From Patescibacteria group bacterium (GTDB taxonomy: Bacteria; Patescibacteriota; Minisyncoccia; CAIUEV01; JAHKAQ01): a stretch of DNA of 64,000 bases. Shown in pieces: positions 15,656 through 55,031 of the stretch (position 1 is its first letter; each line of letters opens with the position of its first letter). The stretch lies in contig JAYEHH010000032.1 of assembly GCA_034716235.1 (NCBI GenBank), positions 370-64,369 of the forward strand, read 5' to 3'. The position numbers and the translations under genes are program-made. The notes beneath the pieces were generated by a model. The model did not search any database. It had not been told where the DNA came from and worked only from the letters and a program-made list of their open reading frames with translations.

Positions 15656-16192
15656 TTAATGAAAGGTCTGTGCTCTTTCGTTTTCATCCGGCTTCTTTTT
15701 CCCTCCCTTCATCCCATGCCGGATTACTCTTACGATGTTATAACTCCAATACTTCCTCCTGAAGTAGTCTATTAAGCTATCTACTTCTTTGTTAAAGCAA
15801 ATAGCTAGAAATAAAACACCACTAGGTTGCTTGACCATCTTGGTTGCATCCGAGAGTGATATTCTATCGTCAATCTCGTTTACTATGAGAACTGTTCCCT
15901 CATATGTTTTAACCAAATAAAACATATTGAGAGTTTCTCCAATTCTTAGAGGGTTAGCTGAGCTGATATTCTCCCATGAATTTTCCTTATATTTTGTATA
16001 AAGATGTCTTGACAATCCGTTGAGCTCTTGGGTTGGGCAAATAGCCATAAAGGAGCCAAGTCCATACTGCTCAATTATGCTAACTATTTCTGCCAGTCGC
16101 TTTTCCATAACGGATTCCTCTACCACAATATTTCCGACTCCTATATCCAGTAGGGATGCTAGATACACTATATTAAACTTTTCTTTATTCAT
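15656..16192 (-). CDS. hypothetical protein, internally duplicated, paralogous to the upstream gene
   Basis: 178 aa. A strong SD (aggaggagaggaaaATG) precedes it. Its C-terminal half LFLAICFNKEVDSLIDYFRRKYWSYNIVRVIRHG matches LLVVCSDNEITGLLRYFRERYQEENIVRIIIRE of the 16185..16538 product. No known family recognised. Confidence 0.55.
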   Translation of the reverse strand: MNKEKFNIVYLASLLDIGVGNIVVEESVMEKRLAEIVSIIEQYGLGSFMAICPTQELNGLSRHLYTKYKENSWENISSANPLRIGETLNMFYLVKTYEGTVLIVNEIDDRISLSDATKMVKQPSGVLFLAICFNKEVDSLIDYFRRKYWSYNIVRVIRHGMKGGKKKPDENERAQTFH

Positions 16193-19772: not shown

Positions 19773-20726
19773 CTATCCCCTTATTACTGCAAAAGTAATA
19801 TAGCTAATATAGGTGAGAATAAATATAGCTCCCTGCCATCTTTCTAGAGTACGCCTTTTCCCAATAAAAATAAAAATAAAAAGTAAAAAACTAGATAAAA
19901 TGACCATCCCCAAATCAACATTACTATTAGTCTGAAAAGCTAGAGGGGCTACGGTGGCACTAATTCCTAAAACCCATAAGAGATTAAAGATGTTGGAGCC
20001 AACAATATTACCAATAGCAATTTCAGCATTTTTTTTGTAAGCGGCTACTGCCGAAGTGGCTAGTTCCGGTAGAGAAGTACCAATGGCTACAATAGTTAAA
20101 CCAACCAAAGTCTTGCTTAACCCTAAAAGTTCAGCAAAATGAATAGCTCCATTAATAATCCACTTACCTCCAAGAGTTAGACCAACTAGGCCAATAACAA
20201 TAAAAATGATTGATTTAAGAGTACTAAATTCTTTTATGTTATTCTTGTCCTTCCCACCTATTTTGGCTATTCCAAAGGTATAATAAATAAAAATAATAAA
20301 AAGCACGAATAAAACTAACCCGTCAATTCTAGAAAGAACGGAAATCTCCATTTTATCAATTAATAAATCGTTAGCTAGGACACCTACTAGCAGAGCAGCC
20401 AGTAATGAAAAAGGTATTTCTTTCCAAACGGTATTTTTTTTGATAGCTAGGGGATAAATTAATGCTGAAACTCCTAAAATTAAAAGAACATTAGAGATAT
20501 TACTTCCAAAAACATTGGCGATGGCTAGTTCTGTTTCGCCGGATCCGGTAGCGAAAAGGTTAACCAGTAATTCTGGAGCAGAAGTTCCAAAGGAAACAAT
20601 AGTAAGCCCAATAACTATATTAGAAATTTTCAATTTTTTAGCAACAGAGGCTGATCCATCAACTAAAAGACCAGCACCTTTAATTAAAGCTACAAAGCCT
20701 AAAACGAAAAGAACAGTAATTAACAT
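19773..20726 (-). CDS. Ca2+/Na+ antiporter (CaCA/YrbG family)
   Basis: 317 aa polytopic protein. Two alpha-repeats are present (GTSAPELLVNL and GTSLPELATS, each followed by GNIVGSNIFN-like motifs). Confidence 0.85.
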   Translation of the reverse strand: MLITVLFVLGFVALIKGAGLLVDGSASVAKKLKISNIVIGLTIVSFGTSAPELLVNLFATGSGETELAIANVFGSNISNVLLILGVSALIYPLAIKKNTVWKEIPFSLLAALLVGVLANDLLIDKMEISVLSRIDGLVLFVLFIIFIYYTFGIAKIGGKDKNNIKEFSTLKSIIFIVIGLVGLTLGGKWIINGAIHFAELLGLSKTLVGLTIVAIGTSLPELATSAVAAYKKNAEIAIGNIVGSNIFNLLWVLGISATVAPLAFQTNSNVDLGMVILSSFLLFIFIFIGKRRTLERWQGAIFILTYISYITFAVIRG

Positions 20727-20949
20727 TCAGATATATTAAAAATTAGGTGTTTAATTATTATCTTTCTCCTAGGATTACTTTGATTTCTTTTTTCCATATT
20801 GATAAATATTAAAAACTAAAAAGCAAATTCTTTTTGCAAATTTATTGTTATTATACTACCGTTTACCTTTTTGTAAAATTTTAATTTTATTTTATTTTTA
20901 AAATCTGCTATGCTTTGAAAGGAAAAATTTAATTATTAAACTAAAATTT

Positions 20950-21219
20950 ATGGCTTATTCATTGGAAAATCCTAAGAGATTTAATAGGATACCCGATCAT
21001 ATTTTTGAGAGAATAGCATATAACGCTTTGAATATGATAGAGAAAGACAAAAAAGCCGAAGCCTTGAAAGTGTTAGAAGATGAAAAATTTAGAAAAAAAG
21101 CTACTCAATTCTGGGAAGGAAAATTTATTGGAGATGATTCAACAAAAGCCGAGATTGAATTGGCAAAGGGATTAAAAATAAGATTGGAAGAAGAGCTTAA
21201 AGACAATGATTTAACTTAA
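20950..21219 (+). CDS. hypothetical small helical protein
   Basis: 89-aa ORF with no competing ORF and a charged helical composition. No family recognised. Confidence 0.4.
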   Translation: MAYSLENPKRFNRIPDHIFERIAYNALNMIEKDKKAEALKVLEDEKFRKKATQFWEGKFIGDDSTKAEIELAKGLKIRLEEELKDNDLT

Positions 21220-21632
21220 TAAAGATTATAGATATTTTTTAAACTAAAAAAGCCCGCCTCACTATTTAAAAAAATAGATAAAGCGGACTTTTTTCAATTC
21301 TCTAAAGTAATATAATCTCCGTAAATTAGCTAAAAACAAATTAATTGCGGTAAACGATCTATTAGTAATGCTTGGCTGAACGTGTTACCACGCTTACACC
21401 TACATCCTATCAACCTCGTCATCTTCGAGGAGATCTAAGCCTAATCTTGGGTTGGGCTTCGCGCTTATATGCTTTCAGCGCTTATCCACATCCGACTATA
21501 GCTACCCAGCAATGCCCTTGGTAGGGACAACTGGTACACCAGAGGTCGATTCATCCCGGTCCTCTCGTACTAGGGATGAGATCCCTCAAGCTTTCTCGCG
21601 CCTATGGAAGATAGGGACCAACCTGTTTTACA

Positions 21633-21664
<32 letters not shown>

Positions 21665-21679
21665 TTGGCGAACAGCCAA

Positions 21680-21726
<47 letters not shown>

Positions 21727-22007
21727 AGTAGCGAACAGCCTCGTCTATATGAGCTATCGGAGGCTACCACTCTGTTATCCCCGGGGTAACTTTTATCTGC
21801 TGAGCTTCCGCGATCCTACGATCCACGGTCGGATCACTAAATCCCGCTTTCGCGACTGCGCGACCTATAAGTCTTGCAGTAAAGCCGGCATCTGCTTTTG
21901 CGCTATCAGTCCGATTTCCATCCGGACCTAGCCGACCTTTGTGAACGACTCCGTTACAATTTGGGAGTCGAGCGCCCCACTCAAACTACCCACCAGACAC
22001 TGTTCCC

Positions 22008-22091
22008 GAGCTGGTGTTTAGTTACCTCTGGTAAATTTCACTGTTTCACATTTAATCAAGAAATCCCCAAAACATAGCTAAACATCAGCTC
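22008..22091 (-). other. ~70-nt expansion of the 23S helix homologous to E. coli H79
   Basis: Between the conserved ctaac and gacagtgtctggtggg blocks E. coli has ~23 nt; here there are ~91 nt. The extra sequence is closed by the stem gagctggtgtttag / ctaaacatcagctc. Confidence 0.6.
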
Positions 22092-22363
22092 AAGGTTAGA
22101 ACTACACGATTCACAGGGTGGTATTTCACTGATGACTCCATCTATCCCAAAGGATAAATCTCAAAGTCTCCCACCTATACTGAGCAATAAATTGTATAGA
22201 TCAATGTCAAGCTGTAGTAAAGCTCCACGGGGTCTTTCCGTCTTTCCATAGGCAAACGGCATCTTTACCGCTACTGCAATTTCACCGGGTCCTTCGTTGA
22301 GACAGTCTCCAAGTCGTTACCCCATTCGTGCAGGTCTGAACTTACCAGACAAGGAAATTCGCT

Positions 22364-22716
22364 CTGTTTTGTTAATCTTTATGTCACCATAAAGCACGGA
22401 CTATATCTTTCCGCTAAATTTAAGTCAAAAAATTTAGGCGGATTCAGCGTTTAGTCTCTGAGGATTCTAAAAATCTTTTTTAGTCTTTCCTGCTGATTAT
22501 CTGGCACCTCGGATCTTTTCCGAGAATTACTGATAACTTTTTTACTTGGCATAGCTTTATAAAAATCTATGGAATAACTATACCATAGTAGTCTCAGATT
22601 TTCCAGATTTTCCAGCATATAGCTGAATGTTTTAGGACATCTTAATAATTTAAGATAGGCAGCGTTAATAATATAATTGTTCCAGTCCTTTTGGAATCTA
22701 AATATTAAATTCCAAA
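22364..22716 (-). ncRNA. group I intron in 23S domain IV (between ...CCUAAGGU and AGCGAAAUUCC...), no ORF
   Basis: The conserved exon sequence ctaaggt|agcgaaattcc is split by ~353 nt. The 5' exon ends in U and the insert ends in G (aaaacag|agcg). The insert contains the group I catalytic-core consensus cagagactaaacgctg ... ggaaagatatagtccg, comparable to Tetrahymena ACAGACUAAAUGUCGG ... AAGAUAUAGUCGG. No ORF over 60 aa is present, so there is no homing endonuclease. Confidence 0.85.
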
Positions 22717-22896
22717 ACCTTAGAACAATTATAGTTATTGCTGACGTTCACCGGGGCTTCAGAGATTGGCGTTAACCGCTCTCGTTAACCTTCCGGCACT
22801 GGTCAGGGGTCAGCCCCTATACATCCCCTTACGGGTTAGCAGGGACCTATGTTTTTGATAAACAGTCGCCCGGAGTCTTTAGCTGTGGCCGACGAA

Positions 22897-23229
22897 TGTA
22901 CTGAATGGTGAATCCGAACTAGATAATTATCTGGTTCGGATTGTATGTGGGTTATTAATATTTTATTATGCTTTCTAACAAAGCGTTGCTAGGGTGCATA
23001 AAACGGTGACAATCGTCCAAAGTAGAAAGCCTATTAAAGGCATCTCTGCTAGGCCAATTGCCGTGCTCATCATCTTCTTTGTTCTTCCTTTCATATTGAT
23101 CCTCCTCCTCTAATTTCAATTTAAAAAACATAATTTACCCACACTTACCTTTTTTATTTTTTCTCCTTTCCTAAATCCATTTAGATTTCTTGGATTTAGA
23201 TTTTAAAGTTCAATTCACCATTCAGTACA
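22897..23229 (-). other. ~330-nt stem-bounded insertion (IVS or expansion segment) replacing 23S helix 63
   Basis: It lies between the conserved cttcgggataaggc and ggccacagctaaagactccgggcgactgtttatcaaaaac blocks. A perfect 17-bp inverted repeat (tgtactgaatggtgaat 22897-22913 / attcaccattcagtaca 23213-23229), extended by gccgac/gtcggc, closes ~300 nt of AT-rich non-rRNA sequence. Confidence 0.75.
22975..23094 (-). CDS. 39-codon ORF for a small hydrophobic peptide inside the 23S insertion (MKGRTKKMMSTAIGLAEMPLIGFLLWTIVTVLCTLATLC)
   Basis: It is on the same strand as the rRNA. gaggaggagg lies 6 nt upstream of the ATG (complement of 23101-23110). The basic N-terminus is followed by a ~22-residue hydrophobic helix, and the stop is TAG at 22975-22977. 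It is too short for the ORF track. Coding status is unproven. Confidence 0.35.
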   Translation of the reverse strand: MKGRTKKMMSTAIGLAEMPLIGFLLWTIVTVLCTLATLC

Positions 23230-24453
23230 CTGTCGGCAGGCCTTATCCCGAAGTTACGGCCGCTATTTTGCCGAGTTCCTTAACGAAGGTTCTCCCGTTC
23301 ACCTTGGGCTACTCGCCCTACCCACCTGTGTTGGTTTAAGTACGGATTAAACCTAAATATTTTCACAAAGCTTTTCCAGGAAGTCTATTCGCTCGAATCT
23401 GTTCCACTTGCGTTTCACATTTTTCCGCACCTTTTAAAAAGATGAAGAAACGTCAAACCATTAAGACGCTCAAGTTAGCTGACTTCGCACTTTGCTACAA
23501 CTTAGATTTAAGTCAAGGAATATTAACCTTGTGCCCATCGACTACGCTTTTCAGCCTCGCCTTAGGACCGACTAACCCTGGGCTGATTATCATCGCCCAG
23601 GAAACCTCAGGTTTTTGGTGGAAAGGAATCTAACCTTTCTTGCGGTTACTCATACCAACATTCTCTCTTCCATTAGCTCCACTAAAACTCACATTTTAGC
23701 TTCACAGCGCATGGAATGTTCTCCTACCCCGCCATACTCTAAAAAGAATATGACAGCCATAGTTTCGGTACTATGTTTGAGCCCCATTATATCTTCGGCG
23801 CGGAACGACTAGACTAGTGAGCTGTTACGCACTCTTTAAAGGAATGGCTGCTTCTAAGCCAACCTTCTAGCTGTTTAAGAAGTTCTACATCCTTTTCCAC
23901 TTAACATAGATTAGGGACCTTAACTAATGGTCTGGGCTGTTTCCCTTTCGTAAATGAAGCTTAGCCCCCACTTACTGACTCGTTAGACTTGTATATTGGA
24001 ATTCGGAGTTTGGTTGAGTGCCCTAGACAAAAGTCATGGATACTCATTCAGTGCTCTACCTCCAATACCAACTATCTAACGGCTATACCTAGATATATTT
24101 CGGAGAAAACCAGCTATCGCCGAGTTCGATTAGCATTTCACCTCTAACCACAGCTCATCCCAGCGTGTTGAACGGCGCTTGGGTGCGGACCTCCACCGCT
24201 TTTTAAGGCGGCTTCATCCTGGCCATGGCTAGCTCACTCGGCTTCGGGTCTGACCCTAACGACAGGGGGCGCCACTTAAGACTCGCTTTCGCTGCGGCTC
24301 TTCCGCCTAGACGGATTAACCAAGCCGTTAAAATCAACTCGTTGGTTCGTTCTGCAAAAAGCACGCGGTCACCGGCTCAAAAAAAACTTGAGCGGGCTCC
24401 CACTCGTTGTAAGCACACGGTTTCAGAAACTATTTCACTTCCCTTTCGGGATA

Positions 24454-24495
<42 letters not shown>

Positions 24496-25309
24496 AAAGT
24501 GTATTTAGTCTTACCGGGTTAGTACCGGCAAATTCACCTGGAATTTCTCTAGTTCCAGGCTACTCAAGATAAAATAACTCAGAGTGATTAATTGTTTTCG
24601 CCTACAGGACTTTTACCTTCTAAGGTAAGCCTTTCCAGGCATTTTTGGCTAACAACTAATGCTTTTTACTCTGCCAATACTAAAAGTTGTAAAAGCACAA
24701 TAAAATTATACTTTTACAATTTCAGTTCGGACGCTATTGAACTTATTACCCTCAGTAAAAACTGAGTTTGGACTTTTCCCCGTTCGCTCGCCGCTACTTA
24801 GGGAATAACTATTGTTGTTTTTTCCTTCGGCTACTAAGATGTTTCAATTCGCCGAGTATGCTTTTTACTCCTATGTATTCAGAGTAAAATTCTATTCAAA
24901 AATGAATAGAGGGTTTCCCCATTCGGAAATTCCCGGATCAAAGCTTGCTTGACAGCTCCCCGAGACTTTTCGCAGCCTGCTACGCCCTTCATCGCCACTT
25001 TGTACCAAGGCATCCACCATATGCTCTTATAACCACAATTTATTAGTGTTTTTAGCTAATTCACAAAGATTATTTGTAAATTAATTGCAATCACTTAAAT
25101 ACCATTTTGCCTAATAATTGTTTTTAACCACAATCTCCAAACAACTATTATTAAAATAAATTGTTAAAGTCCATTATGTGGCCTAAAAGGTAGTTTTTAA
25201 AAATAAAAACCGCTTTTCAAGCCGCTAATTCTTTAAAATAAATTAGACCCAAAAACTAGCCAAGGAACAGCTCTTAATAAATTCTCAATAAAATAATACT
25301 ATAAAAATT

Positions 25310-25337
25310 ATTATAGCAATAAATAAGTTAGTGTCAA
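25310..25337 (-). promoter_or_regulatory. consensus sigma70-type promoter upstream of 23S (TTGACA-16nt-TATAAT)
   Basis: The minus strand reads cagTTGACActaacttatttattgcTATAATaatt. It lies ~270 nt upstream of the mature 23S 5' end and downstream of the atpC stop. Confidence 0.5.
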
Positions 25338-25401
25338 CTGAATGTAAACCAACCTCTAATCTCTAAATTAATAAATAGACAATTCAGAGCTTATAATTTC
25401 T

Positions 25402-25865: not shown

Positions 25866-27308
<1,443 letters not shown>

Positions 27309-35131: not shown

Positions 35132-37948
35132 TTATACTTTCTTTCCACAACACTTTTTATACTTTTTACCACTGCCACAGGGGCAAGGGTCATTCCGACC
35201 AATTTTTTCAGCTTCCCTGATTGGGATAGCCGTTGTTTCCTCCGCCTCAGCAGAGCTTCCTGCGGATTCCTTAACTTCATTGTTTTTAAAAAATCCACTG
35301 CGGTTGGCATCTGCTCCTTTTAATTGGAGATTAGTGGGCATTTTACTTTCTTTTCCCAAGACTGGTTTAGACTCTGCTTTGTCTTGAACCCCCTCATTGC
35401 CCTCTTGGCTCTTAGACGCAATTTGAATTTTAAAGAGGGTCTCTACTGTATTTAGGCGAATATTTCCTAAAAAATTCTGAAACATATCAAAACCTTCTTT
35501 CTTATATTCTACCAGTGGATCTCGTTGACCGTAGCCCCGCAATCCGACTCCCTCTCTTAAATATTGCATATTATCTAAATGTTCCATCCATAAAGTATCG
35601 GAAGTTCTTAGCATAACTGCTCTTTCTAATTTTCTCAAGGCGTCGGATCCAATTACAGCTTCCTTGGCTTGATAAACCTTAAGAGCATAGTTAATAATTT
35701 CCTTCTTAAGTTGCTCTTGCTTCTCCTTAATATCTATTTGCTGATCTTTGACAATTTTCTCTAATTTTTCTTTCAAGGTTTTTCCAGCAGTAAAAAGCGA
35801 TTGACAATATTCAAAAATCTCCTGAAGATTCCAATTCTTTGCATCTTCTGCTCGAGTATGAAAAGAAACAAAATCACCAACCACTTTTTCCATTGTGTTC
35901 AGTAGCTCATTTTTTTCAACAAGCCCTAAAAGGTTGCGCCGTCTTTTTTGATAAATAGTTTCTCGTTGATGATTGATTACATCATCGTATTCTAGGACAT
36001 GTTTTCTAATATCAAAATTAAAGCCTTCAATTTTCTTTTGAGCTGATTCAATAGAACGACTAATGAGTTTATTTTCAATGGGCTGATCTTCTGGTAAGCC
36101 TAAGGTGTCCATAATTTTTTTAATCTTTTCCGAACCAAATCGCTCCATTAATTCGTCTTCTAGGGAAACATAAAACTGAGAACTACCTGGGTCTCCCTGT
36201 CTTCCAGAACGACCTCTAAGCTGATTATCAATGCGCCGAGCTTCGTGGCGTTCAGTGCCAATAATATGCAGACCTCCTGCTTTCACTACTCCTTTTCCCA
36301 ATTTAATATCGGTTCCTCTTCCAGCCATATTGGTAGCAATGGTTACCACTCCAGATCTTCCCGCCCGAGTAATAATTTGAGCTTCTCTTTCGTGATTTTT
36401 AGCGTTTAAAATTTCATATTCAACACCTTCCCGGTCTAGATATTTGGATAGGGTTTCTGATTTATCTACCGAAATGGTCCCTACTAAAACTGGTTGCTTC
36501 TGCTGATGCCTAGCTTTAATGTCTGCCACTATAGCATTAAATTTTCCAGCTTCATTTTTGTAAATCTTGTCTGGATAATTAATTCTAATCATTTTCTGGT
36601 GAGTGGGGATGCTCAAAACATCTAATTTATAAACTTTAGAAAATTCTTCCGCCGAAGTAAGAGCAGTACCGGTCATACCGGATAGTTTTTTATAAAGACG
36701 GAAATAATTCTGAAAAGTAATGGTTGCCAGAGTTCGGCTTTCCCGTTGTACTTTAACACCCTCCTTAGCCTCTAAAGCTTGATGGAGCCCCTCAGAAAAG
36801 CGACGACCAGGCATTAATCTTCCCGTAAAGTCATCCACAATCATCACTTCTCCATCTCTTACTACATACTGTTTGTCTTTTTTGAAAATAGCATGGGCCT
36901 TTAAGGCCTGATGTAGATGATGCACGTAACGCATCTGCCCAGATAAATAAAGATTATCAATCCCTAGAATCTTTTCCACCTTACTAATTCCTTTATCGGT
37001 TAAAGTAACCGCCTGCATTTTTTCATCAATATTGTAATCTTTATCTAAAATCAATTTAGGAACAACTTTCGCAAATTTTAAATAAAGCTTGGTAGATTCT
37101 GCATCAGGAGCAGAAATGATAAGCGGAGTTCTAGATTCATCAATCAAGATATTATCAACTTCGTCCACCACGGCAAAATTAAGATAATCCTTTCGAAACA
37201 TCTTGGTTTGGTCTTGATCTTTATTTTCTTGCCCTTGTTTTTTCTTTTCCTCTTTAGCTAGAGCTTTAAGATCTCTAATTTGAACCGTTTGCTCAAGACT
37301 AGGTGCCATATTGTCACGCAAATAATCAAAACCGAATTCATTATTGGTTCCATAAGTAATATCAGCACGATAAGCTTCTTGCCGAGTAACTGGTCGGAGA
37401 TTTTCATATTCAATGCTAGCCTCATCGGTATCTGAAGCTACTTCTTGATCGTAAAAGTAAGCCGTATCATGCTGAACACAGCCCACCGAAAGTCCTAGAA
37501 AACTATAAACGGTTCCCATCCAATTGGTATCTCTGCGAGCTAAATAATCATTAACCGTGATAATGTGAACCCCTTTTCCTTCAAGGGCGTTAAGATAAAC
37601 TGCGAAAGTAGCCGCTAAAGTTTTTCCTTCACCGGTCTTCATTTCAGCAATTTTTCCTTGATGCAGAGCAATACCTCCAAGTAGCTGAGTATCGTAAGCC
37701 CGTTGTCCAATGGTTCTCTTACCAGCTTCTCGGCAAACCGCAAAAGCTTCTGGCAAAAGTTTATTTAGTGACTCTCCCTGTTTAATCCTTTGCTTGAATT
37801 CGGAAGTTTTTTCTTTAATCTGTTCGTCGGATAGTTGCTTAAACTGTTTTTCCCATTCATTTATTTTGACAATCCAAGGCTGAATTTTTTTTAACTCCTT
37901 GGTATTGGGGTCACCAAAAACGCTGGATATTTTAGATAAAAAACTCAT
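35132..37948 (-). CDS. secA: preprotein translocase ATPase SecA
   Basis: 938 aa. It has the DEAD-like motor (MKTGEGKTL, VDEVDNILIDESRTPLIIS) and a C-terminal zinc motif CPCGSGKKYKKCCG. Confidence 0.95.
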   Translation of the reverse strand: MSFLSKISSVFGDPNTKELKKIQPWIVKINEWEKQFKQLSDEQIKEKTSEFKQRIKQGESLNKLLPEAFAVCREAGKRTIGQRAYDTQLLGGIALHQGKIAEMKTGEGKTLAATFAVYLNALEGKGVHIITVNDYLARRDTNWMGTVYSFLGLSVGCVQHDTAYFYDQEVASDTDEASIEYENLRPVTRQEAYRADITYGTNNEFGFDYLRDNMAPSLEQTVQIRDLKALAKEEKKKQGQENKDQDQTKMFRKDYLNFAVVDEVDNILIDESRTPLIISAPDAESTKLYLKFAKVVPKLILDKDYNIDEKMQAVTLTDKGISKVEKILGIDNLYLSGQMRYVHHLHQALKAHAIFKKDKQYVVRDGEVMIVDDFTGRLMPGRRFSEGLHQALEAKEGVKVQRESRTLATITFQNYFRLYKKLSGMTGTALTSAEEFSKVYKLDVLSIPTHQKMIRINYPDKIYKNEAGKFNAIVADIKARHQQKQPVLVGTISVDKSETLSKYLDREGVEYEILNAKNHEREAQIITRAGRSGVVTIATNMAGRGTDIKLGKGVVKAGGLHIIGTERHEARRIDNQLRGRSGRQGDPGSSQFYVSLEDELMERFGSEKIKKIMDTLGLPEDQPIENKLISRSIESAQKKIEGFNFDIRKHVLEYDDVINHQRETIYQKRRRNLLGLVEKNELLNTMEKVVGDFVSFHTRAEDAKNWNLQEIFEYCQSLFTAGKTLKEKLEKIVKDQQIDIKEKQEQLKKEIINYALKVYQAKEAVIGSDALRKLERAVMLRTSDTLWMEHLDNMQYLREGVGLRGYGQRDPLVEYKKEGFDMFQNFLGNIRLNTVETLFKIQIASKSQEGNEGVQDKAESKPVLGKESKMPTNLQLKGADANRSGFFKNNEVKESAGSSAEAEETTAIPIREAEKIGRNDPCPCGSGKKYKKCCGKKV

Positions 37949-37987: not shown

Positions 37988-38341
37988 TTAAAACCTAGCT
38001 CCTTCGTCGATAGAAAACTTTTTCTTAATACTAATGGCTCCCCTTCTTTCAATGGTTTGACGCTTCTCTTTCTTTCTTCTGATTTGATCACTTAATCCGT
38101 CACGCGCTAAATCAAAAGCTGCCTTGATTGTTTTAGCCTTAGCGTCTCCAATGTAACGGGAGCCAGGGACTCTAAGCTGAATCTCTACTCGATAAATTCC
38201 TCTTTTATCTTTTTCAATCTCCATTTCAATACTTACCGTTTGATTTTTAAAATACTTTTGCAACTTTGCAATCCTTACTCGGATATAATGTTTAACTTTT
38301 TCCTTCACCTTCAATCCATTTAGATAGAATTTAACTTTCAT
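37988..38341 (-). CDS. hpf: ribosome hibernation promoting factor / RaiA family (short form)
   Basis: 117 aa. The beta-alpha-beta-beta-beta-alpha pattern (YIRVRIAKLQKYF..VSIEMEIEKDK..YRVEIQLRVPG..AAFDLARDGL..QIRRKKEK) is typical of HPF/YfiA. Confidence 0.75.
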   Translation of the reverse strand: MKVKFYLNGLKVKEKVKHYIRVRIAKLQKYFKNQTVSIEMEIEKDKRGIYRVEIQLRVPGSRYIGDAKAKTIKAAFDLARDGLSDQIRRKKEKRQTIERRGAISIKKKFSIDEGARF

Positions 38342-38515
38342 AGTTTTTTTGATTTAAACTTAAAATTAAAATTGAATTCCATTTTTATACTATTACAATA
38401 AAAATTTATTTACAAATAAAATAACAACTTTCATTCCCGCTTTTTTAAATTAGGGTTACCTTCTTTGTAAAAATCCTCTAAACTTATTAGAAAGATTGTC
38501 GAATATGACTTAAGA

Positions 38516-38665
38516 GACCCGCCTAAACTAGCAGGGATTCTGAGCAAATTTAAAAGACTCGAACATAATTGGTCATTCCCGTCTCCGCGGGAATGACATA
38601 TCTTAAGGTTTTTTCTAGATATACCAAGATTCCTGTCGAAATTTATCTTATACTTGATGTGGGGA
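38516..38665. repeat. degenerate, rearranged copy of the GC-rich mosaic repeat family
   Basis: It contains agcagggattctgagcaaatttaaaaga (cf. agcgggaatcccgagcaaatttagaaga at ~1119), the hairpin ggtcattcccgtctccgcgggaatgac (38571-38597), ttctagatataccaagattcc (cf. gtctagacgtaccgggattcc) and atttatcttatacttgatgtgggg (reverse complement of ccccgtatcaagtacgggataaa). Confidence 0.55.
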
Positions 38666-38730
38666 AGGAAAAAACATGCTGTAATAAAACTTTTTTAAAT
38701 TTCCAGAAAAATAAGCTCTACCACTAATTT

Positions 38731-38759
38731 TTGAAAAATGATAACTTTTATGTTATAAT
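38731..38759 (+). promoter_or_regulatory. putative uvrA promoter TTGAAA-17nt-TATAAT, giving a near-leaderless transcript
   Basis: The sequence reads ttTTGAAAaatgataacttttatgtTATAATaaccaagttATG. The -10 element ends 9 nt before the ATG at 38769, and no SD is present. Confidence 0.4.
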
Positions 38760-38768
38760 AACCAAGTT

Positions 38769-41582
38769 ATGAAAAAAATTATTATTCGCGGAGCACGAGA
38801 ACATAATCTCAAGAATGTCAACCTCAAATTACCTCGGGGCAAGTTTATTGTTTTTACAGGAGTTTCTGGTTCAGGCAAATCAACTCTAGCCTTTGATACT
38901 ATTTTTGCTGAAGGTCAAAGACGCTATCTTAAAAGCCTTTCTAGTTATGCCCGTCAATTTCTAAGCCAGGTAGGAAAGCCAGACATGGATTTAATAGAGG
39001 GTCTTTCTCCAACTATATCTATAAATCAAAAGACTGTTGGGCGAAATCCTCGTTCTACCGTAGGAACCGTCACGGAAATATACGATTATTTAAGGCTTCT
39101 CTTTGCTAAAATAGGCACCCCCTTTTGCCCTCGTTGTGGAACAGAAATTAAAAAAAATTCGTTAGAAGAAATAATTAAAGAGATCTCAAAAGAATTTAGA
39201 GAGCGTGCTCAAATTCAAATCTATGCCCCAGTAAATTGTAAAACAAAAGAAGAATGTCAAACCGTTTTGGGTAATCTTTATGAACAAGGTTTCGCTAAAG
39301 TCATTATCAATGGAGAATTAGTAAAGCTCTCTACTTATCGTTTTCTGCAATTCAAAAATCCTGCTCCTTACAAAATGAAAGTTTTAATAGATGAATTAAA
39401 ACTTAATTCTAAAAATTCGGGGAAATTGGCCGAAAGTCTTGAGCGCGCCTTAAGAACAGGGAAAGAAAAAGTTGTAATCACCCAAGGTAAAAAAGTTAAA
39501 AGCTTTGGCCGAAATATGAAGTGTCCCAATTGTGGTTACCGTTTGAAAAAAATTGAGCTAAATTCTTTTTCTTTCAATAGCCCTAACGGAGCTTGTCCCG
39601 TTTGTAACGGTCTTGGAAAACAAATGCAGGTATCTCTTAAGCTAATAATGCCTGACCTTTCTAAAACCATAGGTCAAGGGGGAATTTTTCCTTATAGTTA
39701 TCGTCGTAATAAATATTTCATTCAATTTGTTAATTCAGCGGCTAGAGTTCTAGACATTTCTTTGAATACTCCCTTAGGAAAAATTCCCCGATCCCAACTT
39801 AATAAATTACTTTTGGGGAAAGGAAAACCAATAGTTATAAAAATTAAAGAGGCTCATCACCCTACTAAGGCTCAAGCCGTTACTTTCCCTGGAATAATTA
39901 AGTATCTAGAAAATTATTATCACAACACTGAATCTAAACAAATTAAAAAAGAGATTGAGAAATATATGATTAAGAGAACTTGTCCTGCTTGCCATGGAGC
40001 TCGTCTTAAGCCTGACAGTCTTCTTATAAAAATTAAAGGAAAAAATATAAGCGAAATTGCTAATCGCTCTATTAAAGATTTAATTAAGTTTTTCCGCACG
40101 CTCAAGTTTACTCAGGGGCAAGAGCTGGTTGCTAAACGAATCAAACAAGAAATAGTTAGCCGTCTGACTTTTTTAAATAATGTAGGATTACCGTATTTAA
40201 CTTTAGATCGTTCTTCGGCTACTTTGGCAGGAGGTGAATTTCAAAGAATTCGTTTAGCCAGTCAAGTTGGAACAGAGTTGACAGAAGTAATCTATATTTT
40301 AGACGAACCTTCCATCGGCCTACACGCTAGAGATAACAAAAAATTATTGGCTATTCTAAAAAAATTAAGAGATGCCGGCAATACAGTCATTGTTATTGAG
40401 CATGACAAGGAAACCATGCTTAACGCTGATTGGCTGACCGACATTGGACCTGAAGCTGGAGAAAACGGTGGTAGAATTATAGAAAATGGTCCGTTGAAAA
40501 AAGTTTTACGGAGTAAAAAATCGCTAACGGTTCAATATTTAAAGGGAGAGATTAAAGTTGAGATTCCTCGCAAAAGAAGAACTCCTTCTAAAAAGAAGCT
40601 GATTATTTCGGGAGCTCAAGAGCATAATTTAAAAAATATACAAGTAGAAATACCTTTGGAGGTTATGACTTGTATTACGGGAGTTTCCGGATCGGGGAAG
40701 TCAACTCTAGTTAATAATATTATTCACCGTAAACTGGCTAATTATTTTTATCATTCCATTGCCCAACCGGGAAAACATAGGAAAATAGAAGGATTGCAAT
40801 TTATTGATAAAGTTGTAGGGATAGACCAGTCACCTATTGGACGCACTCCCCGCTCTAATCCGGCAACTTATACCAAGGTGCTTGCTCCCATCAGACAACT
40901 ATTTGCCTCCACTCCGGCTGCTCAAATTAAAGGATTTACTCCCGGTCAGTTTAGCTTCAATATGACAGGTGGTCGTTGTGATAATTGCCAAGGGGCAGGA
41001 TTTCTAAAAGTAGAAATGCAATTTTTGCCAGATGTTTATGTACCTTGTGATGTTTGTAAGGGGAAACGTTTTAAAAAAGAAATTTTAAAGGTAAACTATC
41101 AGGGAAAGAATATAGCTGATGTTTTAGCAATGACGGTCAATGAGGCTGCTCGATTTTTTTATCAGACACCTCAAGTTTACAACATATTAGCGGTAATTCA
41201 AGAAGTGGGTCTGGGTTACATTAAACTAGGACAATCGGCCACCACTCTTTCTGGGGGAGAAGCTCAGCGAATTAAGTTAGCTTCTGAACTGGCCAAGAAA
41301 CCAACCAATAAAACTTTCTACATTCTGGATGAGCCGACAACCGGCCTTCATTTTGAAGATATTAAAAAATTGCTAACCGTTATCCAAAAATTGGTTGATC
41401 AAAAAAATACCGTTTTAATGATTGAGCATAATTTAGATGTTATAAAATCAGCCGATTGGATTATTGATCTTGGGCCAGAAGGTGGCGAACAAGGTGGTAA
41501 AATTGTTGCTCAGGGAGCACCAGAAAAAATTATTAAAAACGCTAAAAGCTATACTGGAAAATATCTTAAGGGATATCTTTAA
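38769..41582 (+). CDS. uvrA: excinuclease ABC subunit A
   Basis: 937 aa. It has two ABC ATPase modules (GVSGSGKST twice, LSGGE.QRI.LA twice) and zinc-finger Cys clusters. Confidence 0.95.
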
Positions 41583-46525: not shown

Positions 46526-48343
46526 ATGCCAAATTATTTCGTCAATCAAAGAAATATTAGTGCGTTACTTCAAAACATTAAGGACGAAGATATTGTAATC
46601 CCAGAAATTCAGAGACCTTTTGTTTGGGAGAGTAAAAAAGTTCGTAATCTTATGGACTCATTGTATCAGGAATTTCCAATAGGTTATATTATTACATGGA
46701 AAAATCCAAATATAAGACTAAAAAATGGAAGAATGAGCGAGGGAAAACAAGTTATAATAGATGGACAACAAAGAATTACCGCTTTAATGGCTGCGATCTT
46801 GGGACGAGAAATTATAGACAAAGAGTATCAAAAAAAGAGGATTCGGATTTCCTTTAATCCATTGAAAGAAAAGTTTGAAACATTAACTCCTGTTATTGAA
46901 AAAAATAGTGAATGGATAAGCGATATTTCAGAATTTTTTAAAACTAGAAATAATATTTTTAATTTTACTGCTAATTTTTGTAAAAAAAATAATTTTACCG
47001 AAAAACAAAAAATCAAGACTCAGCAAAGTCTAACAAAATTACTAAACATGGAGGATAAGTTTATTGGAATTATTGAGCTTGATGCAAATTTAGATATTGA
47101 TGATGTAACGGAAATATTTGTTAGAATTAATGATGCTGGGACTCCCCTTTCACAAGCAGATTTTGCAATGAGTAAAATTGCCTCATACGAACCAACATCA
47201 GACCATTTGTTTGGAGTGAATTTAAGAAAGTCTATTGATTATTTTGCTCATCTATCTCAAACACCACATTTTCTTGAAGATATTGGAAGAAACGATAAAG
47301 AGTTTAGCCGAACAGAATATTTGCTAAAAATGAAATGGGCCGGGAAGGAATTGGATAATATATATAATCCAAACTATAAGGATATTTTAAGAGTAAGTTT
47401 CATTAAGGAATTTAATAGAGGGAAAATTAGCGATCTTGTGAAGCTTTTATCTGGACAAAATTTTAAAACAAGAAATTATGATCAAAAAATACAAGAGAAA
47501 TCATTCTTGGCTTTAAAAAATGGAGTCCTTGACTTTATAAATGAAAATCATTTTAAGAAATTCCTTATTATTTTACAATCAGCTGGAATTATTGATTCAA
47601 AACTTATTAATTCACAGAGCGTTCTAAATTTTGCCTATATTGTCTATTTAAAACTTAGAAAAGATGGAATGGCAAATAATTTAATTGGGAAATATACAAA
47701 AAAATGGCTTGTTCTTTCAATTTTGACTGAAAGATATTCAGCCTCACCAGAATCTACGATGGATAAGGATATTAAAGATATTAATAAATATGGAATTAAA
47801 AAAGTTATTGCAAAGATTGAAGAGGCGGACATGTCATCAACTTATTGGAATATTGGACTTGTACAAAATTTAAACAGGGCGATAATTTCAAGCCCATTTT
47901 TAAGCCTCTTTTTTATAGCACAGATATGCTCTAAGGATAAAGCTTTATTCTCCGAATCGGTTTTAATCGATCAACTCGTTAGCATAAAAGGAGACGTCCA
48001 TCATATTTTCCCCAAAAATTATCTTCAAAAAGCAGGGTTTGGAATAAGTAAATATAATCAAATTGCAAATTTTGTTTATTTACAACAAGAAGTAAATATA
48101 ACAATAGGAGATAAACCACCAGGACAATATTTTAGCCGAGCATTGAATCAATGTGATAATAAAACTTTGGATAGTGGAAGTATTGGAGAAATTACAGACA
48201 AGAAAAAATTGATAAAAAATTTAGAAATAAATTCTATCCCAACTGATATTTTTGAAATGGATATTACTAATTATGATGAATTTTTAGAAAAAAGACGGAA
48301 ATTAATGGCAAAGAAAATTGAAAAGTTTTATAAAAGTTTATAG
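46526..48343 (+). CDS. GmrSD-type modification-dependent (type IV) restriction enzyme, DUF262 + DUF1524
   Basis: 605 aa. The N-terminal DUF262 has IPEIQRPFVW, EFPIGYII and IIDGQQRITAL. The C-terminal His-Me/HNH-like DUF1524 has GDVHHIFPKNYL...NFVYLQQEVNITIGDK. Confidence 0.8.
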   Translation: MPNYFVNQRNISALLQNIKDEDIVIPEIQRPFVWESKKVRNLMDSLYQEFPIGYIITWKNPNIRLKNGRMSEGKQVIIDGQQRITALMAAILGREIIDKEYQKKRIRISFNPLKEKFETLTPVIEKNSEWISDISEFFKTRNNIFNFTANFCKKNNFTEKQKIKTQQSLTKLLNMEDKFIGIIELDANLDIDDVTEIFVRINDAGTPLSQADFAMSKIASYEPTSDHLFGVNLRKSIDYFAHLSQTPHFLEDIGRNDKEFSRTEYLLKMKWAGKELDNIYNPNYKDILRVSFIKEFNRGKISDLVKLLSGQNFKTRNYDQKIQEKSFLALKNGVLDFINENHFKKFLIILQSAGIIDSKLINSQSVLNFAYIVYLKLRKDGMANNLIGKYTKKWLVLSILTERYSASPESTMDKDIKDINKYGIKKVIAKIEEADMSSTYWNIGLVQNLNRAIISSPFLSLFFIAQICSKDKALFSESVLIDQLVSIKGDVHHIFPKNYLQKAGFGISKYNQIANFVYLQQEVNITIGDKPPGQYFSRALNQCDNKTLDSGSIGEITDKKKLIKNLEINSIPTDIFEMDITNYDEFLEKRRKLMAKKIEKFYKSL

Positions 48344-48375
48344 TAATAATTTTCTAATCAGAGAGCAGAAAGCTC

Positions 48376-48777
48376 TTACTCCTTATCAGGCAATCTATCA
48401 TCTTTTTTTCTTTGATAATAAGTATTCTTATTTAAACATCTGTTTATAATATTTTCCATGTGCCAATAAGTGTAATTGCCATATCTAAAATAAATCTGTT
48501 TTGTTTTGTAAAAATAATCCTCGTATCCTGACTGGTCAATGTAATTAGCAAGCTCTAAGTATAATTTGTTATCAACTTTTTCTTGGACAATATATTCATG
48601 GGGCCATGTTTTAGCATAAGTTTTTGCAGGCGTCCAATTAGAATTTTTAATAAATAATTTTAAATTATTGGGGAGTAGTACTCTATCAAACATCGCCTTT
48701 ATTTTTTTACTATGAAGAAATATTAAAACCTTTTTGATTGTAGCTATAGTATTGTTGATTACTTTAGTTTCATCCAT
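48376..48777 (-). CDS. hypothetical protein (WTPAKTY..WPHEYIV motif)
   Basis: 133-aa ORF convergent with the GmrSD gene. It is rich in aromatic residues (YFYKTKQIYFRYGNYTYWHM). No family could be named. Confidence 0.45.
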   Translation of the reverse strand: MDETKVINNTIATIKKVLIFLHSKKIKAMFDRVLLPNNLKLFIKNSNWTPAKTYAKTWPHEYIVQEKVDNKLYLELANYIDQSGYEDYFYKTKQIYFRYGNYTYWHMENIINRCLNKNTYYQRKKDDRLPDKE

Positions 48778-48927
48778 GCTGAATCTAAAGTGGATTCCAT
48801 AAGTTGCATATTCTTTTAATCAAAAATACATTATTTATTTCAATAAGTATAGTAAGTTATAATTTAAAATAGCTGAACAGAATTCTTAATTTATAATCTA
48901 GAATTTGTAATCTAAAATCTCTCAAGA

Positions 48928-48965
48928 CTTGATTAAATGGGTAGAAAGTGGCTTAATGGGGAGGA
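48928..48965 (+). repeat. island repeat, left half-unit B (38 nt), possible promoter TTGATT-17nt-CTTAAT
   Basis: cttgattaaatgggtagaaagtggcttaatggggagg is identical to the first 37-38 nt of unit C (55963-56000). It lies 131 nt upstream of the McrB start. Confidence 0.7.
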
Positions 48966-49095
48966 GAATTGCATGGTTAATTGGTTATCAATGAAAATGC
49001 TATAAAGTTTTTATTAAGATTATAATTAAGAGAATAATTCAGGTAGGGTTTTTTGCAAAAATTAATGTGCTTTTTAATTATTTTATATAAATTCA

Positions 49096-52014: not shown

Positions 52015-52019
52015 TTTTT

Positions 52020-53057
52020 ATGGAGATACCTATAATAAATATATATTACCTACTTTGTTATGCTTGGGATAAACTTGAAGAAAAAGATGTTGTTAACGTA
52101 AAAGAAGAAGATCACACTAAGTTACTTGATCTTTTTGCAAAGATATTAATTAACGGAATGAATCATCTAATCAGGAAAGGATTGGACAGAAATTACATTG
52201 ATATCAAAGAAGATTCAAAGAGAATTAAGGGAAAGATTAATTTCAATGAAACACTGAAAAGGAACTTGTTGGTACGATGTGAAATTAGTTGCGAATTCGA
52301 CGATTTTAGTTACAACATTCTTCACAACAGAATTATTAAAACAGTGATTGGAGGATTAGTTAGAAATGATGAGGTGGATCAGGAGCTGAGGGACGAATTG
52401 AATAAAATCTATCGATTATTGAAAGAGATTGATGAGATAAGGCTTTCCTCAAAAATATTTAATGCTGTAAAATTAAACAGAAATAATTACTTTTATGATT
52501 TTCTGATCAAGGTATGTAGGCTGATATATGAAAATTATTTAATCACGGAAGAAACGGGCAAGGGGAAATTTAGAGATTTTATAAGAGACGAAGTAAAAAT
52601 GAGAATGCTCTTCGAAGATTTTGTTAGGAATTTTTATAGAAAAGAACAAAACGAATTTTCTGTAACAAGGGAATTGATTGCATGGAATGTTAAGGCTGAG
52701 AATGATGAAGATATGAGTTATATGCCGAGAATGGAAACCGATATATCGCTAAAATCAAAAAGTAAAAAAATAATAGTTGATACAAAATATTATAAAGAGG
52801 CCATTAAGGGTCAATATAAGAATAAAGAAAAGTTAATATCCAATAATTTATATCAAATGTTTGCCTACATAAATAATATAGAAAACAAAGGAGGTCTAAA
52901 TAAAAAATGTACTGGAATATTACTTTACCCAACAGTTAAAAAAGATTTGGATTTAAAATATAAAATACCAAATCATAACTTACAAATTAAAACAATAAAT
53001 CTAAATCAAGAATGGAAAAAAATTCATAAAGACTTATTAAGTGTAATTATGACTTGA
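52020..53057 (+). CDS. mcrC: McrC-family nuclease subunit
   Basis: 345 aa, starting 5 nt after mcrB. The N-terminal YLLCYAWDKLEE and the C-terminal PD-(D/E)xK-like METDISL...IIVDTKYYK are typical of McrC. Confidence 0.8.
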   Translation: MEIPIINIYYLLCYAWDKLEEKDVVNVKEEDHTKLLDLFAKILINGMNHLIRKGLDRNYIDIKEDSKRIKGKINFNETLKRNLLVRCEISCEFDDFSYNILHNRIIKTVIGGLVRNDEVDQELRDELNKIYRLLKEIDEIRLSSKIFNAVKLNRNNYFYDFLIKVCRLIYENYLITEETGKGKFRDFIRDEVKMRMLFEDFVRNFYRKEQNEFSVTRELIAWNVKAENDEDMSYMPRMETDISLKSKSKKIIVDTKYYKEAIKGQYKNKEKLISNNLYQMFAYINNIENKGGLNKKCTGILLYPTVKKDLDLKYKIPNHNLQIKTINLNQEWKKIHKDLLSVIMT

Positions 53058-53131
53058 AAATCCCTATGTTTATAAATTTTAAAAACAATTTAGAATAGAA
53101 GATAATCATCTATTTATATTTATATAACCCA

Positions 53132-54349
53132 ATGCAACAATTTTCTCATTCAAAATTACAAACCTATGAAAGATGTCCCCTGCAATATAAGCTCCAATAC
53201 CTCACCAATCTAAAGCCGGAGCAGGAAGAGACAATAGAAGCCTTTGTGGGTAGCCGGGTCCATGAGACTCTGGAACTTCTTTATCGTGATCTACTGCGAA
53301 CAAAACTAAATTCTTTAGCTGATCTTTTAAAGTTCTATGATAAAATTTGGAGAGTAAACTGGAGCAATGACATAGTTATCAATAATAAAGAATTTAAAAA
53401 GAAACATTACTTTGATCTTGGAAAAAAATGTATTAAAAATTATTATGAAAAATATAGCCCTTTTGATCAGGATCAAACAATTGGAATTGAGAAGAGGATT
53501 AATTTACAATGGGGAGACATTGGAATAGTGGGATACATTGACCGTTTAGCTAGAGACAGCCAGGGTATTTATTCTATCCATGATTATAAAACGGGTGCCA
53601 TCATGGAACAGAAGTACGCAGATCAAGATCGTCAGCTAGCCTTGTATTCAATTGCCGTTAAGGAAAACTTTAGAGAGGCCAAAGAGGTAAGGTTAATTTG
53701 GCATTTTGTAGCTTATGGCGAAGATGTTATCTCGAAACGGACAAATAAGGAATTGGCTAAGCTAAAAAATGAAATGCTGTCCCTTATTGAAGAAATTAAT
53801 CTTGCAGAAAAAGAAGATAATTTTCCAGCCAAAGAAACTAAATGTGAATGGTGCGGATATTGGCAGTATTGCCCAAAGAAAAAGCATTTATTCAAAACAG
53901 AAAAACTTCCAAAAAATAAATACCTACAAGATAGTGGAGTAAAACTAGCAAAAAAGTATATTAATTTATCACAACAAAGAACTGTCATAAACAAACGAGC
54001 TAAAACTAAGGGGGAAATAATTAAGCAAGAAATGCTAAAGATTCAAGAAGCTATCCTAAAATATACCCAGAAACATAAAATAGATGTCTTGGCGGGAGAA
54101 AAAATGCTTGTAGCTATTAATAAGAGTAAGAACTATACCTTCCCTACAAAAACTACTGACATTGAAAAATACACTGAATTGGAAAATTTATTGAAAAAAA
54201 GTAAGTACTGGAACGGTGTATCTTCCGTCAATGCCCAAAAAGTTAGTCAATTATTGGAAGATGATGGGATTGACAGTAGATTAAAGCAGAAAATTATTGC
54301 CCTTGCTCCACTTGAAGAATCTACTAACTTATCAATCAGAAAAAAGTAA
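53132..54349 (+). CDS. Cas4/AddB-like PD-(D/E)XK nuclease with Fe-S Cys cluster and ~150-aa C-terminal extension
   Basis: 405 aa. Motifs: FSHSKLQTYERCPLQYKLQY (Cys15), GYIDRLARD (D137), IHDYKTG (D151-x-K153), QLALY (QxxxY) and CEWCGYWQYC (C238, C241, C247). Confidence 0.75.
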   Translation: MQQFSHSKLQTYERCPLQYKLQYLTNLKPEQEETIEAFVGSRVHETLELLYRDLLRTKLNSLADLLKFYDKIWRVNWSNDIVINNKEFKKKHYFDLGKKCIKNYYEKYSPFDQDQTIGIEKRINLQWGDIGIVGYIDRLARDSQGIYSIHDYKTGAIMEQKYADQDRQLALYSIAVKENFREAKEVRLIWHFVAYGEDVISKRTNKELAKLKNEMLSLIEEINLAEKEDNFPAKETKCEWCGYWQYCPKKKHLFKTEKLPKNKYLQDSGVKLAKKYINLSQQRTVINKRAKTKGEIIKQEMLKIQEAILKYTQKHKIDVLAGEKMLVAINKSKNYTFPTKTTDIEKYTELENLLKKSKYWNGVSSVNAQKVSQLLEDDGIDSRLKQKIIALAPLEESTNLSIRKK

Positions 54350-54910: not shown

Positions 54911-54950
54911 AAATAATTAGGGTTATACTCCCCTGCTGCATTCTTTCTTA

Positions 54951-54977
54951 AAAGAATTACGTAATTAATTACTTACC
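54951..54977 (+). repeat. island repeat, right half-unit D (27 nt) with palindrome AATTACGTAATT
   Basis: aaagaattacgtaattaattacttacc is identical to 56011-56037. It lies 55 nt upstream of the ATG at 55032. Confidence 0.7.
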
Positions 54978-55031
54978 AGTAACCCCACTTCCAAAAACAA
55001 TTCTAAAATAACATAGATTAATAGAATCTGA

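Follow-up and report, generated by a model that had tools for sequence, protein, structure and literature searches.

The tip of helix 63 (H63) of 23S rRNA in a family-level clade of Patescibacteria, a group of ultra-small bacteria, carries an element that, at an even chance in our assessment, is a vertically inherited, IVS-like cassette with a genuine coding gene that is excised and translated as a mini-mRNA. Here, we report the position, structure and conservation of this element in a 64-kb stretch of genomic DNA (the window) and in related lineages, together with the coding-type evolution of its ORF and the predicted accessibility of its RBS. The rRNA gene probably doubles as the source of a tiny mRNA. 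New with respect to known IVSs and CPR insertions are the H63 site, a conserved small-peptide gene, an accessible canonical RBS in a clade poor in Shine–Dalgarno (SD) sequences and a second, different cargo at the same helix. The ORFs known from IVSs and CPR insertions are homing endonucleases or the enigmatic S23p, the latter probably unexpressed. If it is excised and translated, the H63 cassette would show cleanly, in a bacterium, that an rRNA gene can yield a protein whose expression is coupled to ribosome synthesis, and would offer a way to study how SD-poor genomes retain SD-dependent initiation.

Insertions of at least 100 nt are present in 82% of CPR 23S genes (Tsurumaki et al. 2024, PMC11270868; Brown et al. 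2015 cited there). As far as the text of PMC11270868 goes, about half of the CPR 23S insertions are group I introns with LAGLIDADG genes, and the residual non-intron insertions are of unclear nature and suspected to be RNase III-type IVSs; insertion ORFs with Pfam domains are almost all homing endonucleases, and the remaining ISs belong to neither intron type and have no ORF. The cassette described here comes from the same phylum as these insertions, and that text, its site-map figures aside, contains neither the H63 peptide cassette nor the 116–119-aa H63 ORF that we describe below (PMC11270868). H63 itself is surface-exposed and mostly shortened in CPR (PMC9297842).

The host of the cassette is a full-length bacterial LSU rRNA gene on the minus strand, present in one copy in the 64-kb window (21341..25040(−); Rfam RF02541, 2318.8 bits, model positions 1–2925). 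At 3700 nt, it compares with a model length of 2925 positions, and in a global alignment it is 68% identical to E. coli 23S rRNA. In this alignment, E. coli helix 63 (about 45 nt, ~1711–1755) is swapped for approximately 350 nt (~22882..23231), which agrees with the earlier note on this DNA, made from the sequence alone, that had placed an insertion at this helix. By E. coli alignment and fold, the whole expanded helix spans 348 nt (22889..23236(−)) and replaces about E. coli positions 1707–1751; the H63 loop is replaced, the native H63 base is kept and the conserved core sequence is uninterrupted. The insert is AT-rich, as also noted earlier, with 33.6% GC (27% outside the ORF) against 46% in the remaining 23S. 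A group I intron lies outside the cassette as its neighbour (22377..22717(−), after E. coli 1931; Rfam RF00028, 64.8 bits). For the insert, a group I or group II intron identity was rejected, as the Rfam search of 22880..23236 returned noise only (E ≤ 10). The interval 22700..23400 contains no sigma-70-like promoter or intrinsic terminator on either strand, by a consensus from which CPR promoters may differ. No tRNA, 16S or 5S gene was found within the 64-kb window, nor was an RNase III gene among the 10 window proteins scanned.

Within the insert, on the rRNA strand, the SD sequence GAGGAGGAGG (23101..23110(−)) is followed after 6 nt by an ATG and 39 sense codons (22975..23094(−), stop included), as the earlier note had described; the product is MKGRTKKMMSTAIGLAEMPLIGFLLWTIVTVLCTLATLC. 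A scan for relatives, with the 5′ flank and the H63 base as query and one genome per species, gave four loci. Homologous H63 elements are present in L004 (JAGYOS010000064.1; 365 nt) and L006 (CAZTZK010000032.1; 331 nt), where the order of the parts is the same as in the window and an SD-led ORF occupies the same place. The orthologous peptides are 48 and 40 aa long (MKKRTKEIKNIMIKCFSTCIPTILEIPLIGFLIWSTVLFLCALTSFSC in L004 and MEKRTKNVLYAVVALLEIPFMGFLVWSIMALVCVLTSFSC in L006). The cassette of the L006 lineage is also found in Mono Lake and other JGI samples (L029–L032 and L054–L056). The 23S cores of the window, L004 and L006 share 93.7–95.7% identity, L004 and L006 are the closest pair in both the 23S core and the peptides, and the order atpG-atpD-atpC-23S is common to all three lineages. 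Because the similarity of the cassettes tracks that of the rRNA, and because the atp–23S synteny is shared, we read the cassette, on these sequence comparisons, as inherited vertically inside one family-level Patescibacteria clade. In the nearest AtpC relative (P0023, 83% identical), the contigs end approximately 170 nt short of H63, and in lineages at ≤54% AtpC identity the atpC–23S synteny is lost. A metagenome scan with the pattern CTGAATGGTGAA-N(20–50)-GGAAAGGAG gave 22 loci, all of them chance matches outside rRNA. The comparative statistics that follow cover three independent lineages plus population variants, that is, few branches.

The element is closed by a long stem (P0), which begins with the 5 bp of the native H63 base, CCGAC/GUCGG, and, past a bulge of 1 nt, runs on for 18 more pairs (17 Watson–Crick and one G–U). 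Its 5′ arm, CCGAC followed by AGUGUACUGAAUGGUGAA (23214..23236(−)), pairs with the 3′ arm, UUCACCAUUCAGUACAUU-C-GUCGG (22889..22912(−)). The 15-mer GTACTGAATGGTGAA has exactly two copies in the window, which are the two stem arms. Of the stem of 17 bp plus 6 bp that had first been proposed, the long, near-perfect duplex is real (5 + 18 bp with the 1-nt bulge), but it extends the native H63 stem rather than being a foreign terminal repeat. Inside P0, a 5′ hairpin of 9 bp (P1, UCUAAAUCC ... GGAUUUAGG; 23170..23200(−)) is followed by a purine motif, GGAAAGGAG (23163..23171(−)), that is identical in 3/3 lineages; its first two G residues overlap the P1 3′ arm, and no conserved start codon follows it in the three lineages. 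A long-range helix, P2, encloses the SD and the ORF by pairing GUGGGU (23137..23142(−)) with ACCCAC (22947..22952(−)), is invariant in the three lineages and is found in all MFE folds. The last codons and the stop are covered by a hairpin of 7 bp (P4, CUAGCAA-CGCU-UUGUUAG; 22975..22992(−)), and a 3′ hairpin (P3, UCCGAAC ... GUUCGGA; 22913..22940(−)) stands directly before the P0 3′ arm.

These helices are maintained across the three lineages. P0 shows one compensatory and two wobble changes with no broken pair, P1 three pairs changed on both sides and one wobble with none broken, and P4 two wobble changes with none broken; P3 has one compensatory and one wobble change and a single pair broken in L006, which is intact in the population variant L055 from Mono Lake sediment. 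Over all helices (52 pairs), both partners have changed in 5 pairs, wobble changes affect 7 and a single pair is broken (L006 only). Arms were defined manually for these counts, because the P2 arm ACCCAC is out of place in the MAFFT nucleotide alignment. The element folds at −114 kcal/mol, as compared with −72 ± 5 kcal/mol for shuffled sequences (z = −7.9; 0/100 shuffles as stable). The H63 element is a real, non-chance feature.

A fold kept in this way could belong to a retained expansion segment, a bacterial counterpart of ES27L in the mature 50S subunit, with GGAGG and GGAAAGGAG as binding sites for a protein or for the 3′ end of 16S rRNA and with an untranslated ORF. The element leaves the ribosome core from H63, the exact site of ES27L (PMC11346433), P1–P3 are kept with compensatory changes that would be needless in a quickly degraded IVS, the closing stem is conserved in sequence beyond its pairing and no ORF follows the second invariant purine motif. 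We nevertheless regard this explanation as unlikely: a long, near-perfect duplex is typical of RNase III substrates, whereas the stems of retained expansion segments are irregular, and the frame-specific, protein-like substitutions, in-frame indels and kept start, stop and SD spacing described below are unexpected for a structural RNA. It is also partly compatible with a coding function, as a retained RNA could still be translated from precursors. Eukaryotic ES27L is likewise branched and of similar or larger size, but it is retained in mature rRNA, recruits nascent-chain factors and is non-coding, whereas the H63 cassette carries an ORF (PMC11346433). We treat the likeness as an analogy of position only and not as a sign of common origin.

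Several features indicate that the ORF is a gene. It is the only ORF of the 23S insert that is common to all three lineages; of two others in the insert, one of 58 aa in a different frame and one of 39 aa on the antisense strand, neither is conserved in L004 or L006. The ATG start, the SD core AGGAGGAG, the spacing of 5–6 nt and the TAG stop are kept in the window, L004 and L006, and every indel within the ORF (24 or 3 nt between lineages, 30 nt in the variant L033) is a multiple of three in length. The Nei–Gojobori dN/dS is 0.45–0.50 at a dS of 0.7–0.9, and variable columns are distributed 23/11/23 over the codon positions, with the second position least variable. In a permutation test in which the observed nucleotide changes were re-placed at random positions and amino-acid similarity was scored, the peptide frame gave z values of 3.3–3.4 in each pair (P ≤ 0.002), and the other five frames gave −2.1 to 1.8. 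The coding signal was still at z 2.9–3.4 when the test left out the start codon together with the final eight codons, where an RNA hairpin overlaps the ORF; as the ORF partly overlaps conserved RNA hairpins, some of the sequence conservation is structural. The comparison with related genomes that the earlier note had proposed lent considerable weight to its coding reading, with the cassette, ORF frame, SD, start and stop all kept in the three lineages. Judged by the substitution patterns of three lineages, the evolution of the ORF is that of a protein-coding sequence.

A reading frame arisen by chance in AT-rich inserted sequence, or a MITE-like mobile element bounded by terminal inverted repeats, is thereby largely refuted as an explanation, and we consider either extremely improbable. 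The ORF is short and the arms form a perfect inverted repeat, as such an explanation would have it; but the three lineages have kept the ORF, which bears a coding signature, and the repeat, which covaries, is a continuation of the native H63 stem. No further copy exists in the window, in the phage, plasmid and viral collections or in the JGI metagenome pattern scan. An identity as a MITE or other transposon was rejected for the same reasons, the arms extending the H63 stem and the element being single copy in the window.

More weight, though still little, attaches to a selfish or neutral IVS that is excised and degraded as in Coxiella burnetii and whose ORF is a slowly decaying, unexpressed relic, which we hold to be rather improbable. 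In the Coxiella precedent, the H45 IVS is cut by RNase III and its S23p ORF is untranslated without an engineered RBS (PMC4990558). Two observations on the H63 cassette point the same way: the peptide has no relatives elsewhere in the collections searched, and the variant L033 (a 962-nt metagenome contig) lacks 10 core codons, its in-frame 30-nt deletion removing GFLVWSIMAL, the most conserved part of the peptide. Unless this deletion is an assembly error, the peptide may be dispensable, and the deletion, together with the small sample, keeps alive both a relic ORF and a retained, ES27L-like segment. A decaying relic sits poorly with the SD, which is strong, conserved and predicted to be unpaired and lies approximately 140 nt inside the element rather than in the cleaved stem. 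It also sits poorly with the dN/dS values given above, reached without stops or frameshifts at a divergence at which only 14–24% of random replicates per pair remain free of stops.

The predicted peptide is a small membrane protein in shape. It has the basic head and single hydrophobic helix first read from the sequence: the Kyte–Doolittle maximum over 19 residues is 2.2–2.3 and the net charge over the first 8 residues +2 to +4 in the three peptides, and AlphaFold models one continuous helix (pLDDT 86). Residues invariant among the three are M1, R4, T5, K6, E, P, G-F-L, W, C, L and a C-terminal C. None of the three peptides matched a Pfam, NCBIfam, PHROGs or PADLOC family above the cut-off; a Pfam DUF6747 match of the L004 peptide (E 0.038, below the cut-off) was rejected as compositional. 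The 39-aa peptide had no exact match in contig or protein collections, and a word-indexed homology search with this peptide alone returned none either. A search with the three-peptide alignment recovered nothing beyond the L006 peptide and a 30-aa deletion variant of it, and no homologue outside the L006 lineage appeared in 5.8 billion protein clusters or 1.84 billion representatives, where two long, repetitive proteins returned by an exhaustive HMMER search (1.84 billion representatives) were set aside as noise. Neither the peptide nor the insert had a relative among viral contigs, phage records and plasmids. As rRNA is usually masked in gene calling, genes embedded in it systematically escape annotation; the window peptide, which none of the protein collections searched contains, belongs to this blind spot.

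Hok, Ldr, TisB, Ibs and AcrZ/MgtS-type proteins are shorter than 50 aa, with a positive N terminus and a single hydrophobic helix, and their mRNAs form long-range pairings. The H63 peptide resembles these type I toxins and small membrane proteins in its size, basic head, one hydrophobic helix and long-range RNA pairing. It differs from type I toxins in that no sequence kinship and no antisense partner were found, and in that it lies inside an rRNA gene with no sigma-70-like promoter of its own in 22700..23400. The likeness to type I toxins raised in the earlier note therefore stands as regards shape, which alone supports the idea by analogy, and receives nothing from sequence, as no toxin family was matched in Pfam, NCBIfam, PHROGs or PADLOC. 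A full addiction module, in which a membrane-damaging peptide is silenced by RNA folding or an antisense RNA and thereby stabilizes the insert, seems to us quite improbable. The size of the peptide, its basic head and single TM helix, and the placement of P2 around the coding region do recall the hok, ldr and tisB loci. Besides the lack of a toxin-family match, the SD is predicted to be open rather than sequestered, the antisense strand of 22700..23400 has no sigma-70-like promoter (by a consensus that may not fit CPR) and an antisense RNA would need to titrate a transcript made at rRNA level.

The SD stands out from its genomic context. No SD match of ≥4 nt precedes the first start in 32/37 long ORFs of the window, so the absence of an SD before housekeeping genes, remarked on previously for several of them, holds more strongly than first stated. 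The atp genes of all three lineages and genes of neighbouring Moranbacteria-like contigs have AU-rich leaders. Elsewhere in the window, a strong SD precedes one gene only (15656..16192, 178 aa, without a Pfam family), and the relatives have occasional SD-led genes with canonical spacing. Given an SD-poor clade, the H63 SD is not background; it is a deliberate-looking exception in a clade that hardly uses SD sequences. The RBS window is moreover predicted to be unpaired, with a mean probability of 0.61–0.98 as compared with 0.36–0.38 for the whole element in the three lineages. The few other genes with a canonical SD and spacing argue that SD-led initiation still works, or is at least still possible, in this clade. 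The anti-SD motif is found in only 48% of Parcubacteria (PMC9297842); as about half of them are without it and the window does not include a 16S 3′ end, the argument from the SD could be undercut.

Taken together, these features are consistent with a route from rRNA precursor to peptide in which we infer excision, translation in vivo, membrane insertion and a physiological role as a regulator or toxin. The cassette would be transcribed within the 23S precursor, and RNase III would cleave the 23-bp closing stem, an extension of H63 and a duplex of the type cut in known 23S IVSs. Cleavage would free an RNA of approximately 300 nt and leave the 23S in two pieces. The freed RNA may then persist as a protected mini-mRNA, with its ends held by the remaining stem, P1 at the 5′ side and P3 at the 3′ side, and with P2 as a clamp around the coding part. 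As the strong SD is predicted to lie in an A-rich, unpaired stretch, 30S subunits could bind it as exposed. Translation would yield a peptide of 39–48 aa with a basic N terminus, one transmembrane helix and a C-terminal cysteine, which would insert into the membrane. Since the peptide mRNA would be made within the 23S precursor, peptide output would be tied to rRNA transcription.

The closest known counterparts are the ORF-bearing 23S IVSs of Coxiella burnetii, Leptospira and other bacteria, in which a few hundred nucleotides likewise replace the tip of a surface helix and a long closing duplex encloses an internal ORF, as in the H63 cassette (PMC4990558). A small genome and a single rRNA copy are listed as common traits of their hosts (PMC4990558). 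The Coxiella IVS at H45 is cut by RNase III and quickly degraded; its ORF is apparently untranslated in vivo, the protein having been made in vitro only with an engineered RBS, and the S23p ORF shows deletions in some strains (PMC4990558). The H63 cassette differs from these elements in site, as classical IVSs occupy helix 25 or 45, and in cargo, as the S23p protein (Pfam 23S_rRNA_IVP) is a four-helix protein of about 120 aa, whereas the H63 cargo is a predicted transmembrane peptide of 39–48 aa; with its single helix and without a Pfam match, the peptide is distinct from the Leptospira and Coxiella protein, as the earlier note had held. In Coxiella, the SD is weak and lost at cleavage (PMC4990558), whereas that of the H63 cassette is strong and conserved, lies inside the element and is predicted to be open. 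The internal RNA helices of the H63 cassette are conserved with covariation, and its excision is putative.

A second point of comparison is provided by peptides encoded within rRNA. Examples are the pentapeptide mini-gene of E. coli 23S rRNA, which confers erythromycin resistance, and the mitochondrial humanin and MOTS-c; these ORFs consist of core rRNA sequence, and their expression is from fragments only or debated. As at H63, a translatable ORF lies inside rRNA. The H63 ORF differs in occupying a dedicated, dispensable insert, in having a conserved RBS of its own and in showing coding-type substitutions.

H63 also carries a different cargo in other Parcubacteria. In the Buchananbacteria-like L003 and L005, a different H63 element of approximately 480 nt has a closing stem of approximately 26 bp, a GGAGG, a TTG start, an ORF of 119 and 116 codons, respectively, that includes two CxxC pairs, and, immediately ahead of the 3′ arm, a GC-rich hairpin, a layout like that of the window cassette. 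The 23S core of L003 is 78% identical to that of the window. The L003 and L005 proteins are 46% identical to each other, with a dN/dS of approximately 0.29 and codon-position differences of 39/26/55. Neither protein reaches the threshold for a known family in Pfam, NCBIfam, PHROGs or PADLOC; the L005 ORF gives a match to PADLOC PDC-M43B (E 6e-4, 16.8 bits). As this ORF is unrelated to the peptide gene, the SD-led coding cassettes at H63 of Parcubacteria are of at least two unrelated kinds. These observations allow a broader reading, to which we lean somewhat less than evenly and which we offer tentatively. The 23S gene would be a true nested-gene locus, in which processing at H63 frees a stable mini-mRNA for an SD-driven membrane peptide, in cells where ordinary mRNAs skip SD pairing. 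Output of the peptide would be hard-wired to rRNA synthesis, and H63 would be a general docking site in Parcubacteria with at least two cargo families. L004 and L003 additionally carry extra inserts at approximately 1176–1181, the H45 site.

The genome is Shine-Dalgarno (SD)-poor. SD matches of at least 4 nt are absent in 32 of the 37 long open reading frames of the window, which have AU-rich leaders; examples of the genes in this SD-poor setting are those at 25866..27299 (-), 35132..37948 (-) and 38769..41582 (+). The same pattern is found in the related contigs L042, L052 and L053 and in L004 and L029, which represent the two other lineages that carry a homologue of the cassette replacing helix 63 (H63) of the 23S rRNA. 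Besides the ORF of the H63 cassette, a strong canonical SD (AAAAAGGAGGAGAGGAAA-ATG) precedes just one gene of the window, that at 15656..16192 (-). Its 178-aa product matched no Pfam family, and the gene may be a member of a special SD-dependent class.

An SD-led ORF also occurs in a second H63 cassette, unrelated to that of the window, which is found in distant Parcubacteria (the Buchananbacteria-like contigs L003, 1858-2397 (-), and L005, 203-733 (+)); the 23S core of L003 is 78% identical to that of the window. This cassette has a closing stem of roughly 26 bp and a GC hairpin at its 3′ side, and its ORF, preceded by GGAGG and starting with TTG, comprises 119 codons in L003 and 116 in L005 and encodes two CxxC pairs. 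The two proteins share 46% identity, with a dN/dS of around 0.29, and had no match among known families.

Within the L006 lineage, the cassette itself varies between metagenome contigs. In L033 (454-546; JGI 3300001336, Mono Lake ML7), the peptide has lost its most conserved stretch, GFLVWSIMAL, through a 30-nt in-frame deletion, and the H63 element is otherwise identical to that of L006; the deletion may reflect natural variation or an error of assembly. L055 (JGI 3300001533, Mono Lake sediment) shows one A-to-G difference from L006, at position 306 of the element, which restores the single broken base pair of the 3′ hairpin P3 (C-A to C-G).

The 23S genes also differ at other sites. At E. 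coli position 1931, the window carries a group I intron of around 350 nt without an ORF (22377..22717 (-)), the L006/L029 lineage carries an intron of roughly 825 nt with a 198-aa LAGLIDADG gene that lacks an SD (L029:4471-5067), and L004 has no intron. The classical helix-45 intervening sequence site (E. coli ~1176-1181) holds inserts of roughly 280 nt in L004 and 205 nt in L003, in which no SD-led ORF of at least 25 codons was found; in the 23S of the window and in L029, this site lacks any insert of at least 25 nt. Two expansions, one of roughly 100 nt around E. coli 272-302 (24645..24766 (-)) and one of 67 nt after E. coli 2213 (22015..22081 (-)), are lineage-specific; they are common to the window, L004 and L029 and are too short for ORFs.

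In the window, the 23S gene stands apart from other rRNA genes: the gene upstream of it is atpC, whose end is 360 nt away (interval 25041..25401), no 5S rRNA was found in the roughly 740 nt scanned downstream (20600..21400), and neither 16S rRNA nor tRNA genes occur anywhere within the 64 kb. At ~38000..38800 the genes change from the minus to the plus strand, and the cumulative GC skew is lowest near 38-40 kb, which together suggest that the chromosomal replication origin lies here. Farther along, 48000..56000 (+) has a lower GC content (29-31%) and strongly positive GC and AT skews, and may be foreign or prophage-derived DNA; within it, the ORF at 54350..54910 gave a weak, sub-threshold match to the N terminus of a caudoviral major tail protein (E 9e-4).
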